DNA from: Giardia intestinalis
Lineage: Eukaryota
Length of the DNA: 64,000 nucleotides
Direction: 5' to 3' (one strand)
Assembly: GCA_000002435.2 (NCBI GenBank)
Contig: CM018793.1
Shown here: in pieces, positions 37,382 through 41,594 of the stretch
Layout: each line of letters begins with the position of its first letter
Position numbering within the stretch: position 1 is the stretch's first letter
Made by a program: the position numbers and the translations under genes
Notes under the pieces: generated by a model
Database searches by the model: none
Seen by the model: the letters and a program-made list of their open reading frames with translations, nothing else
Told to the model about the DNA's origin: nothing

Positions 37382-38343
37382 TTCCTCGTTTTTTGTGATG
37401 GCTTTGTGAGCCTATAGAGACCACAGTGTACACTGTTCAACGCTGTTAGCATGTGTGAGACCGTTTTTTGGTTCTTCGTCATTCGTCCCACTCACACCGT
37501 AACACGCGTCGGTACTTTATCCCATCAGGACCCCTCTGCCTCGTACAAGGCGCAGAACGTGTGTGTCGAAGGGGCCAGCTCGCACGTGCCGACAGAACGG
37601 AGGCCGCCTGCGCCGCTCTCCACGGGCATCCTGTGGAAGCGGCTTCTTTCGTGAGAATTCAGTGGACTGCGTTCTGCCGATGGCGCTTTCCACTAGTGTA
37701 GGGCTTGAAGTGCTCCCGCAACGTGCCTTCTTCAGGAGAAAGCGTAACAGGTGAAGAGCGACTGCACTCTCTGCACAGCAGTCCACTGAGCTTGGGCAGA
37801 CTACGTCCAAGGAGACCTGAAGGTCCTGCAATGGGCATAGCTGCAACTCATGGGAGAGCCCCCCGCTGTTCGTACAGACACTTTCTTCAACCATAGAAGA
37901 CTTACAGATGTAAGCACAAGGCATCTGAGATCATGGCTGCCACGAGGTCCAACGACAGCGGCAGATGAATTAGCACTGAGCACGAATCCTTGGTTACAGT
38001 CTCAGAGTAGTCCACATCACGTAGCCCATTTGGGTAGTCAAGCATGAGTGCTCACAGACAGAGCATAGCGCACTGCACTTTGCGGGTGAGATGAAAGCCC
38101 ACCAGTGTTCTACGCTGTTAATGGCTCTAGCCTAGTACTTCACAAGATCCCATCTAGCCGCAGCACGAAGGAGCAGAGGCCGGACATGGACGCATAACAC
38201 TGCATACAATTATATGCAACAGAAAGAATCAGCAAGTGCCAGAATTATATAGGAATACATGTATGGACATCAGTTGACTGAGCTGTAGATTACAGTGTGA
38301 ATTACAGGTGTTTTAGCCCTTTCTTCGGCAGGAAAAATAAAGG

Positions 38344-39867
38344 ATGGCATGCAACGAACGCGGAGGGTCGCGAGCAGGCAGTTCTAGTCAAGAGGATGCC
38401 TCTTCTGTACCTCACTCCACAAGGGATTCATTCTGGACGCCCCTTATGCGTGCTGCTGCGGAAGGAAATGCTGGGACCGTCCGGATGCTGCTTGAAGCGG
38501 AAGTCCGTACCGGCCGGCGCAATAGACAGGGGATGACGGCCCTCATGCACGCGGCCCAGCGGGGACACGTTGATCCTATTAGGCTGCTTTTTGAGAAGGA
38601 GGGTGGCATCAAAGACAAGAACGGTTGGACCGCGCTTATGCACGCAGCGTACAACAATCACCCTGAGGTGGTTGAAATTCTCGTCCCTCACGATCGTGGG
38701 GAGAAGGACAAGAACGGCCGCACTGCTCTGATGATGGCCGCAGAGAGGGGCCACACAGAGATCGCCTCCTTCTTGGCCCTACACGAGGGGGGCCTGGCCG
38801 ACAGCAGAGGCCGCACGGCCCTGATGATCGCCGCACAGAAGGGGAATCTTGAGATTGTCAGGGCCCTTGTCGAGCACGAGAGGGGCCTGAAGGATAACAA
38901 CGGCTGCACGGCTCTTTCCTGTGCAGCCCGAGCCGGCCACCGCGATGTCGCAATGCTCCTCATGGCACACGAGAAGGACTTTATGGAGTGGACGATGCTC
39001 ATGTGTGCCGCGGCCCTCGGAGACACGGACCTGGCATTCCGGCACCTCGATGAGAAGGGCCAGAGGGACAAGCGGGGCCAGACAGCCCTCATCATCGCCG
39101 CCCAGAATGGAAGGGACGAGGCTGTGGAGCTCCCAATAGGGTACGAGAGCGATGTATCAGGATGGACAGACCTTATCTACTCTGCATACCTCGGGGACAC
39201 GGATGAAGTCAAGGAAAACATTCACGAGAAGGGACGCACTGATATCATTGGGATGTCTGCTCTCATGTGGGCTGCACACCAGGGCCACAAGGAAGTAGTG
39301 GAGTTCCTCCTCGAGCACGAGAGGGGCCTGAAGGACAGAGCTGGGAAAACAGCCCTCATGCATGCTGTTTCTGCATTCAGTGATACTTTCGATGGACGAG
39401 CGGTTCCGACTGATGCGTCAATGGGTACCGGCCGCGGTAGTGTGGTTTCAGAGCGTTATGAGGATCGCCTACAGTGTATCGAGCTACTTGGGGAGCATGA
39501 AGCGCGTATGCGGGATAACAGTAGGAGGACAGCCCTTATGATAGCAGCGGAGTGTGGCCACGGGGGATACGTCAAGAAACTTCTAGATAAGGAGAGGGGC
39601 ATGAGTGATAGTAATGGATGGACTGCCCTCATGAGGGAAGCATCCAATGGCCACACAGAGATAGCAAGGCTCCTGGTGGAGAAGGAGGGGGGCATGAATA
39701 ATGGTAGTGGATGGACAGCACTCATGTTGGCAGCACGGAATGGCCACACAGAGGTGGCGAGGCTCCTACTAGAGAAGGAGAAGGACATGAAGAGTAAGTG
39801 GGGTAATACTGCCCTCAGTATAGTCAAGGGGTATAACCACCCCTCTATCATCTCTCTCCTCTCATAG
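38344..39867 (+). CDS. Ankyrin-repeat protein (protein 21.1 type)
   Basis: More than 12 tandem ankyrin modules (GMTALMHAAQRGH, GWTALMHAAYNNH, GRTALMMAAERGH, GRTALMIAAQKGN ...). ATG follows aggaaaaataaaggATG. Confidence 0.85.
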   Translation: MACNERGGSRAGSSSQEDASSVPHSTRDSFWTPLMRAAAEGNAGTVRMLLEAEVRTGRRNRQGMTALMHAAQRGHVDPIRLLFEKEGGIKDKNGWTALMHAAYNNHPEVVEILVPHDRGEKDKNGRTALMMAAERGHTEIASFLALHEGGLADSRGRTALMIAAQKGNLEIVRALVEHERGLKDNNGCTALSCAARAGHRDVAMLLMAHEKDFMEWTMLMCAAALGDTDLAFRHLDEKGQRDKRGQTALIIAAQNGRDEAVELPIGYESDVSGWTDLIYSAYLGDTDEVKENIHEKGRTDIIGMSALMWAAHQGHKEVVEFLLEHERGLKDRAGKTALMHAVSAFSDTFDGRAVPTDASMGTGRGSVVSERYEDRLQCIELLGEHEARMRDNSRRTALMIAAECGHGGYVKKLLDKERGMSDSNGWTALMREASNGHTEIARLLVEKEGGMNNGSGWTALMLAARNGHTEVARLLLEKEKDMKSKWGNTALSIVKGYNHPSIISLLS

Positions 39868-39874
39868 AGTAAAC
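39868..39874 (+). terminator. Polyadenylation signal AGTAAAC directly after the ankyrin gene stop codon
   Basis: tcaTAGAGTAAACagg: the AGTRAAY consensus immediately 3' of the stop. Confidence 0.5.
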
Positions 39875-41225
39875 AGGACCCCGCCCCGGCCTCGCGGCCC
39901 GACATCTTGTTTACTCTCTCCGTTTCACCGAGGTGGGGTTGCCATCTGCCACCTGAGCAATCCCCTCCATGCGAGCCACCGCCACTCTGGGTAGGCGGGT
40001 CCCTCTCGCCCTCGCACCAGCTGAGATCTAGAGTCCAGAGTCTAGAAACCAAAATCTGAGAATATGAGCTCAGATGTCAAGCGATTCCGGTGGGAGAAGA
40101 AGAAGAAACTTCACTCTATCCACTGGGAGTCTCTGTCGCTCTTCGCGGTGCCTTCCGAGGCTCTCCCATCTTCTGGCCTTTCGGGTCAGCTGTCGTCTGA
40201 TATCTAGTGAGCACCCGTTGTCTCGGGCTTTTCCGTCAGCCACAGCAGTCTGGCCTCAGAAGCAATTGACCCTGACCATGTACTCCAGAGTCGCCTTGGT
40301 GCTGGTACTCCATGATGAAGATCGCACGCCACGAACCTCAGGTGTCGATCCTTAGGTCCCTGAGGTGCTCCCTTGTCTTCTCGTGGAGGGTGCCGTCAGT
40401 CCCGAGTATGATCGGGAGGGTGCTCCCCGTATGCCTCTATCTTAGAGTGGTAGTACGAGCTCATGGATGCCGGCTGAACCACTCCTATGTCGACGGCCTG
40501 GCTGGTGTCTGGAAGGAAGAGGCCCGGCTCTGGTTCGCCTTGTCATGGTCAACCCATACCTTCTGCTCATGGACCACAGTGCACCTCTTCTTCGACACTG
40601 TGTGGTCATCCAACACGAGATCGCGTCGAGGCATCACTTTATGCAGTGTGTCTGGCTCAGTGACGATGTGGTCTGCGTCCATCCTCGCACAGCACACTTA
40701 GAGGTGATGCTTTGGTCTGTTGAGGCGTCGGTCCAGGGTCACATCTTTCCGAGGGGTATCATCTGCAGCATCAGGAGCGATCAGGATCGGTTCACCAAGG
40801 TTGTGTCGCTCTATGATGACATCTCATCTATATCAAGGATATGTGGCTGTTTGTGATGATGAACTCCAAAGCACCAGTATTCTTCAGTGTAACTAGATTC
40901 AATGTACTTCTCAAGACTTGAACCAGATATCCCAGCAAGAGCTTCTCCAACCTGCTTATCAAAGGATTCATAGTAGTCATGTGGTGAGTCCATGTCAATC
41001 AGCAGTGTGTAGTTAGTCACTGGACGATGATCTTAACCAGCGTGAGACCCGCCCAGTGCTGCAACGACTCACACGAGAGAATGTACCCAAACAGCAGCTA
41101 TCAAACTGACCTCAATGAAGTAGAGTAAATCTTCCTCTTCCGAATAACGCCTCCGTTAAAAAATGAAATGTAAGATGTGATGGCACAAATGATGGACATT
41201 AAATTGAAATACCTCCATAAAAATC

Positions 41226-41594
41226 ATGGACCCAAACTCCCTGGCAAGCTCCTTTGTGCAGCACTACTACTCCAACTTCTGCAACCAGGCGACACGTGCT
41301 AACGTCCTGTCGCTTTACAGCCCCACAGCGCAGATGATTTTCAACGGAACACATTGCCGGGGAATCGAGGCCATCCAGCAACAGCTCGAGCGCATGAGCT
41401 TCAAAACCGTCAATATTCCTAATCCTACTATTTCTGCGATGGATCTCGGGGGACGATACTTGGTGAAAGTGTCCGGCCTTTTGAGCATCGACGACTCCAA
41501 TCAGCCTATAGGCTTTGCCCACGTCTTTGTCCTGGGCTCCAACAACGGCTCATTCTATATAGAGGGCGAAATCTTTTCCTTCGCTATAAATTAA
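41226..41594 (+). CDS. NTF2: Nuclear transport factor 2 (NTF2)
   Basis: 122-aa protein MDPNSLASSFVQHYYSNFCNQATRANVLSLYSPTAQMIFNGTHCRGIEAIQQQLERMSFKTVNIPNPTISAMDLGGRYLVKVSGLLSIDDSNQPIGFAHVFVLGSNNGSFYIEGEIFSFAIN is colinear with NTF2. Confidence 0.85.
   Translation: MDPNSLASSFVQHYYSNFCNQATRANVLSLYSPTAQMIFNGTHCRGIEAIQQQLERMSFKTVNIPNPTISAMDLGGRYLVKVSGLLSIDDSNQPIGFAHVFVLGSNNGSFYIEGEIFSFAIN

Follow-up and report, generated by a model that had tools for sequence, protein, structure and literature searches.

A 1.1-kb minus-strand stretch between an ankyrin gene and NTF2 of Giardia intestinalis is very probably the dead tail of a non-LTR retrotransposon

The interval described here covers positions 39868-41225 of a 64,000-nt stretch of Giardia intestinalis assemblage A DNA (assembly GCA_000002435.2, contig CM018793.1; hereafter the window, whose numbering is used throughout) and lies between an ankyrin gene of the protein 21.1 type and the NTF2 gene. 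It is best explained, with a probability of about 0.9, as the tail, decayed and truncated at its 5' end, of an old LINE-like (long interspersed nuclear element) retrotransposon which would have been inserted before assemblages A and E split, would belong to the GilD family and would be functionless today. One part of this explanation is held more firmly than the whole: the minus strand from 41023 down to 39909, about 1.1 kb, carries a dead, 5'-truncated relic of a retrotransposon without long terminal repeats (non-LTR).

All frames of the interval were checked and the longest open reading frame (ORF) has at most 141 codons. It is the largest gap without an ORF in the window, and the median intergenic size in G. 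intestinalis is 81 bp (PMC7641422, Table 1). A sequence-only reading of the same DNA had described the interval as bounded by the ankyrin stop and the NTF2 start and as lacking an intact ORF; both statements agree with the coordinates, the Pfam matches and the frame check. The minus-strand fragments it listed are present (40811-41020; '...LGEPILIAPDAADD...HHL' followed by a stop, from 40823 to 40701; 40485-40697), as are overlapping plus-strand ORFs of 93-129 aa. Since the gap is the largest of its kind and the homology of the fragments to a retrotransposon ORF is highly significant, its lack of an ORF goes beyond chance.

For the homology search, the minus-strand pieces of the interval were joined in order and used as the phmmer query. 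The best match was P0015, a protein of 475 aa annotated as 'Reverse transcriptase [Giardia lamblia P15]' (E 5.1e-49), followed by P0016, a metagenomic relative of 494 aa (E 5.3e-40). In tblastn, residues 174-472 of P0015 were placed on 41023 down to 40226, in order and in three frames, with E values of 2e-28, 6e-16 and 7e-11 for the pieces. The repaired translation of the relic is 57% identical to P0015 and 54% identical to P0016. More distant full-length relatives from Giardia, Spironucleus and Hexamita are annotated as reverse transcriptase (RT)/endonucleases. The proposal of a degenerating gene with frameshifts is thus confirmed, as fragments in three frames align in order on one Giardia RT/endonuclease ORF, and the translated search for a more intact relative which had been suggested identified it as a relative of Giardia reverse transcriptases. 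What had been missed is the nature of the gene, which is a transposable element, namely a 5'-truncated non-LTR retrotransposon copy, and not a cellular gene.

The Pfam domain RVT_1 was found in P0015, P0016 and P0021, the last of which also has C2H2 fingers. RVT_1 spans residues 8-149 of P0016 and ends by residue 121 in P0015. The relic begins at residue 174 of P0015, corresponding to residue 193 of P0016, and hence past this domain. A Pfam search of the single ORF fragments on both strands of the interval gave no match; the retained part falls outside any Pfam domain. Degenerate motifs of the relic align to CVLCGAKMDTNHIVNC, RHD and KPDIFLPD...DIGV of P0016, i.e., to a CCHC knuckle and then a nuclease region of the PD...D type. 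The CCHC, RHD and KPD...D motifs of these relatives are taken by us to represent a restriction-like endonuclease (REL). A linker, CCHC, RHD and KPD...D following the RT is the domain order of non-LTR elements with a restriction-like endonuclease. The remnant of the nuclease core can be read only after a frame change at ~40529, and deletions of 1-2 nt relative to a P15 copy of the element, L006, are found in and just past the CCHC remnant. P0015 is itself partly frame-shifted against P0016 across the CCHC/RHD region (L006 6510-6600) and starts within the RT domain; it is probably likewise a decaying copy and not an active element.

Ordered ORF fragments in several frames would also be left by the pseudogene of an ordinary cellular gene which is still intact in other Giardia lineages, and longer ORFs of the same family (415-657 aa) do occur in P15, which belongs to assemblage E, and in metagenomic Giardia contigs. 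Yet RVT_1 and C2H2 fingers are present in the longer relatives, every relative found is of the RT family, the relatives are multi-copy and fragmentary, L006 adjoins a VSP gene at a locus other than the NTF2 region, and the syntenic P15 locus contains a more decayed copy instead of an intact gene. A cellular pseudogene is therefore extremely unlikely. For the retrotransposon, the longer ORFs may mean that its family stayed alive longer outside assemblage A.

The ORF 40811-41020 aligns to residues 174-215 of P0015 at 60% identity. The hypothetical protein deposited as DHA2_152067 and GL50803_27948 represents the start of what survives of the relic ORF; it is a by-product of decay and no gene. 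A literature search for GL50803_27948 found no paper.

Homology to another copy continues beyond the coding part. A single blastn alignment connects 40756 down to 39911 with positions 6438-7333 of L006 (76.9% over 901 nt, E=0). It crosses the stop codon of the P15 ORF at L006 7008 and then covers ~325 nt of 3' untranslated region (UTR; L006 7009-7333), with 87% identity in the ORF half and 77% in the UTR. The Giardia polyadenylation signal is AGTRAAY. At the terminus of the relic the minus strand reads AGTAAAC, where L006 has AGTAACA. The DNA homology to the other element copy stops exactly there, and this heptamer is the element's own 3'-end signal. The sequence-only reading had reported the reverse-complement motif, which exists, at 39903-39909; its correct position is 39909-39915. 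A second AGTAAAC directly follows the ankyrin stop on the plus strand and is the ankyrin gene's own signal (Table 1).

Compared with L006, the ORF part of the relic has about 29 indels, nearly all of which are small deletions on the window side, and 23 are not multiples of three (counts which include an alignment-dependent stretch, see below). In the well-aligned half, from 40697 down to 40226, 13 of the 15 indels break the frame. The best translated path through the relic requires at least 4 frame changes and meets 3-4 in-frame stops. Decay was thus dominated by deletions, as has been reported for GilD (PMC2861651). Assemblies from six read sets (SRR3568099, SRR3602126, SRR3568104, SRR10662866, SRR10662862 and SRR3177738) match the window at 100% identity and without gaps over the parts of the interval which each of them covers. 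As six independent assemblies show the same frameshifts, the lesions are real, and sequencing errors are excluded. An intron or spliced gene was also considered and rejected, since the sequence at ~40600 which nearly matches the 3' splice motif of Giardia falls inside the relic ORF.

Table 1. Features of the ankyrin-NTF2 interval and its two flanking genes (window coordinates).
Feature	Position	Strand	Evidence or remark
Ankyrin gene, 507 aa, protein 21.1-type	38344-39867 (stop 39865-39867)		Pfam Ank_2, 4.6e-97
AGTAAAC, 3'-end signal of the ankyrin gene	39868-39874	+	directly after the ankyrin stop; read from the sequence
AGTAAAC (GTTTACT on +), 3'-terminal polyadenylation-type signal of the relic	39909-39915	-	end of L006 homology
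3' UTR of the relic, ~315 nt	39911-40225	-	DNA alignment to L006
Decayed C-terminal ~300 codons of a non-LTR retrotransposon ORF (linker/'thumb', CCHC knuckle, restriction-like endonuclease)	40226-41023	-	phmmer, tblastn
Nuclease core remnant, best preserved, EPGLFLPDTSQAVDIGVVQPASMSSYYHSKIEAYGE	40420-40542	-	78% aa identity to P0015 residues 364-404
Broken CCHC zinc-knuckle remnant, VCCARMDADHIVTE versus CVLCGAKMDTNHIVNC in P0016	40656-40697	-	alignment
69-codon ORF (GTG start; 60 aa if read from the first ATG)	40811-41020	-	deposited as DHA2_152067 and (60 aa) GL50803_27948; exact look-up
Host flank, NTF2 upstream region, outside the relic	41024-41225	+	no match to RT proteins or L006
NTF2 gene	41226-41594 (ATG at 41226)		Pfam NTF2, 3.1e-17

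The age of the insertion was assessed at the corresponding locus of P15, L004. This locus is syntenic: YchF, a 559/562-aa ankyrin gene and a spacer of ~960 nt correspond, aligning at 90.7% up to window position 38340, and on the other side NTF2 and the genes to the right of it correspond as well. Between the P15 ankyrin gene next to it and NTF2, L004 contains a more deleted relic in the same orientation, consisting of RT residues 177-227 (5683 down to 5536) and the distal 3' UTR (5542 down to 5322, matching window 40160 down to 39910), and about 700-800 nt of the ORF are gone. The 5' boundary is common to both relics within about three codons (residue 174 versus 177) and adjoins the same conserved flank. 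The shared pieces are 70-72% identical between A and E; at 4-fold degenerate sites, the identity is 0.685 for NTF2 and 0.703 for a neighbouring gene of 886 aa. Because boundary and flanks are the same and the divergence equals that of 4-fold sites, these alignments are most simply read as one insertion which predates the A/E split and has decayed neutrally ever since.

Alternatively, the A and E copies could be independent insertions of one family at a hotspot. The region behaves as a hotspot of rearrangement (A and E have different ankyrin genes, a VSP gene is found in assemblage B, and P15 has an extra RT fragment at L004 5230-5320), and the WB copy shares more identity with the non-syntenic L006 (77-87%) than with its syntenic counterpart (70-72%). 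However, a higher identity to L006 is expected if L006 was under selection for longer, and the common orientation, 5' boundary and flank, together with an A/E divergence at the neutral level, make two separate events unlikely. A single old insertion is thus preferred.

Concerning the adjacent ankyrin gene, a comparison of window 38344-39867 with L004 3944-4972 showed that A-E nucleotide homology (90.7%) ends with the ATG of the 507-aa gene and does not reappear before the relic. In P15, the gene in this position encodes 342 aa and has only ankyrin-repeat-level similarity to the 507-aa gene; therefore, the 21.1-type gene was either replaced or has diverged beyond recognition. In assemblage B (L001 1-442), a VSP C-terminus (...GLVGFLCWWFICRGKA and a stop; ...FICRGKA and a stop) ends 290 nt upstream of NTF2 and no relic is present. 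The locus is a synteny break. Each of the three B-type contigs compared stops 300-440 nt upstream of NTF2, which suggests a repeat at this place, and many B assemblies break there; the arrangement of L002 alone was seen in 10 samples.

Further observations concern the 3' end of the relic. Two contigs, L008 (4113-6210) and L012 (1696-3793), from SRR10662866 and SRR10662862, are 100% identical to the window for up to 4.1 kb and continue into unrelated DNA right after AGTAAAC. The DNA past this junction (window 39909) contains an ORF of 238 aa and the beginning of a product whose listed length is 7838 aa. Either the relic end carries a structural variant, or the two sequences were joined in assembly through a repeat. 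In P15, an inverted duplicate of the 3' UTR end lies upstream of the ORF of the non-syntenic copy, beside the VSP gene (L006 5215-5377), and the extra fragment of L004, which covers RT residues ~225-255, lies just past the 3' end of the syntenic relic. Together they suggest tandem or head-to-head arrangements of relics. As L008 and L012 switch locus after AGTAAAC, the ankyrin gene is replaced between A and E, and B has a VSP gene there, the 3' end of the relic might be an active rearrangement junction, although we consider this improbable.

Three retrotransposon families are described for WB, two of which, GilM and GilT, are telomeric and possibly still active (PMC3091692, PMC10999387). The third, GilD, goes back to a description as the 'dead' family in 2001 (Arkhipova & Morrison, PNAS 98:14497, cited through PMC2861651, PMC3091692 and PMC10999387). 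Its copies are broken by deletions and lie near VSP genes (PMC2861651). The intact families were represented by P0223, P0039, P0212 and P0220, which were taken to be of the GilM/GilT type by inference (intact, multi-copy, on contigs of ~5.4-5.9 kb). P0223, an intact WB-type RT/endonuclease of 1109 aa with 13 member sequences, is located on a 4.02-Mb contig, has relatives on contigs of 5.4-5.9 kb and is 28% identical to P0016.

A decayed copy of GilM or GilT would have the same ORF architecture, in which the RT is followed by a CCHC knuckle and the endonuclease, and the relic's family shares with both the complete order of C2H2 fingers, RT, CCHC knuckle, restriction-like endonuclease and 3' UTR. 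However, the repaired translation is only 18-19% identical to the ORFs of the P0223 group, compared with 54-57% for P0015 and P0016, and none of the four proteins has a significant tblastn match in the interval (best E from 0.6 to 1.7e-4 over 25 residues; 0.6 for P0223 versus 1e-26 to 1e-30 for P0015/P0016). Against L016, a 5.9-kb element of the GilM/GilT type, a single DNA match of 40 nt was obtained (80%, E 4.5e-5) and judged spurious. Neither telomere repeats nor a tandem array occur in the 64 kb of the window. GilM and GilT thus differ from the relic's family in protein (18-28% identity) and have no DNA similarity to it; they are intact and multi-copy with 3' regions of ~2.5 kb, in contrast to the single, internal, dead fragment of 1.1 kb with a UTR of ~315 nt, which is not part of head-to-tail units of ~5.5-6 kb next to a telomere. 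Descent from either family is very unlikely.

Since the relic is not of the GilM/GilT type and WB is reported to have only three families, elimination leads to GilD, to which the relic probably belongs. GilD reportedly consists of dead copies only. Both are internal, carry multiple small deletions, frameshifts and stops and are distinct from the intact families, and a non-telomeric location in rearranging VSP/21.1 regions may be a further likeness. Remnants of RT are annotated as psi-RT in the WB reference of 2020 (PMC7000408). These short RT-derived remnants in non-syntenic places rich in VSP and 21.1 genes resemble the relic; at this locus, older annotations instead give the hypothetical protein of 60 aa, GL50803_27948. 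A further likeness exists to 5'-truncated LINE/R2-type copies of other eukaryotes, in which the 3' end and the terminal signal are kept, the 5' part is lost and decay is neutral, whereas the relic shows no R2-like specificity for an rDNA target.

A copy of this kind would have been made by target-primed reverse transcription which stopped early, the usual origin of 5'-truncated LINE copies; alternatively, the 5' part may have been lost soon after insertion. The copy would have been placed between the 21.1-type ankyrin gene and NTF2 before A and E separated and would have decayed neutrally since then, presumably having no function at present.

Several points weigh against this account. The copy in the window retains no RT domain, and everything upstream of it is also missing; because of this, the interval contains the relic of an element and not an element, and the absence is what is expected of a 5'-truncated copy. 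The region 40700-40900 is poorly aligned, so that indel counts in that stretch depend on the alignment. No A-run follows AGTAAAC on the minus strand, and hence there is no poly(A) tail, and no target-site duplication was recognisable, although no systematic search for one was made; in this the relic differs from LINE/R2-type copies. Neither feature is expected to survive a divergence of ~25-30%, but the missing tail leaves the insertion mechanism inferred. The GilD label was reached by elimination and by described properties, not by alignment to a named GilD sequence or consensus, and applies probably rather than certainly. Finally, GilD copies are near VSPs, whereas the neighbours of the relic in WB are the ankyrin (21.1) gene and NTF2; a VSP does adjoin the corresponding site in assemblage B and the P15 paralogue L006.

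A different interpretation, offered in part by the sequence-only reading, is that the relic or the interval is a functional non-coding or antisense unit today, for instance one which yields small RNAs or regulates NTF2 or the ankyrin gene and uses the retained AGTAAAC as its 3' end. AGTAAAC has been kept at 39909-39915, small RNAs are reported from telomeric Giardia retrotransposons (PMC10999387), and the host flank of the relic is better conserved than neutral sequence. In this flank, 41039-41225 is 87% identical to P15 L004 5813-6000 and 41159-41211 is 80% identical to assemblage B; the part 41039-41158 reaches 90% identity between A and E, which exceeds the neutral level of ~70%, and is absent from assemblage B. 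Nonetheless, the shared relic pieces have diverged as far as neutral sequence does, and ~700 nt of the element are gone from P15. Rfam searches over interval and flank at permissive E-values returned only noise (e.g., GlsR5 with 14.5 bits versus a gathering score of 100), and folding of 41024-41160 was no better than shuffles on both strands (z +0.1 and +1.4). The flank contains no conserved small ORF, as each frame which is open in WB is interrupted in P15 by a stop or a frameshift. A present function of the interval is accordingly quite unlikely; a functional antisense or small-RNA unit formed by the relic together with the constrained flank 41039-41158 is likewise improbable.

Of the 44 differences which separate the window from the A2-like assemblies L007 and L015 (98.7% identical to it overall), 10-11 fall within a block of 86 nt in this flank (41035-41120). 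The block adjoins the relic's 5' end, shows 87-90% identity between A and E, more than the neutral level, and is missing from assemblage B. A candidate compensatory stem (41060-41065/41097-41102) was rejected, since by eye it forms only in the A2-like sequence and not in A1 or E.

Elsewhere in the window, neither sequence similar to the interval nor RT-like sequence other than the relic was found. The ankyrin and NTF2 neighbours sit in a gene-dense region, and the product of the NTF2 ORF is identical to XP_001707998.1/ESU36186.1 of G. intestinalis assemblage A. An ORF of 376 codons (49916-51046, plus strand) overlaps one of 271 codons (50021-50836, minus strand) almost entirely. The 962 nt between the divergent ankyrin genes (37382-38343) have no ORF of more than 137 codons and are 90.7% identical to P15 L004 2968-3943. 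Mismatches in this region lack codon periodicity, three 1-nt indels are present, and neighbouring silent sites are only ~70% identical. No Rfam match at E<=1 was obtained for it, folding gave z values of -0.8 and -1.3, and no 8-mers of the telomerase template were found in either of the two ORF-free regions. It is a conserved non-coding kilobase, possibly of greater interest than the relic.

In the very compact genome of G. intestinalis, a dead retrotransposon accounts for an 'intergenic' stretch of unusual length. This is a known kind of feature in a well-studied genome, ordinary genomic debris without a hidden gene. In annotation, GL50803_27948 / DHA2_152067 should be corrected to a relic fragment. 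The orthologous relics of A and E provide a small internal check on neutral divergence, about 30%, the same as at 4-fold sites. The locus is also an example of the association between RT remnants and synteny breaks reported for Giardia (PMC3091692). If dead GilD-type relics did act as preferred breakpoints or recombination substrates which shuffle 21.1 and VSP genes, they would belong to the machinery by which Giardia diversifies its variable gene families.

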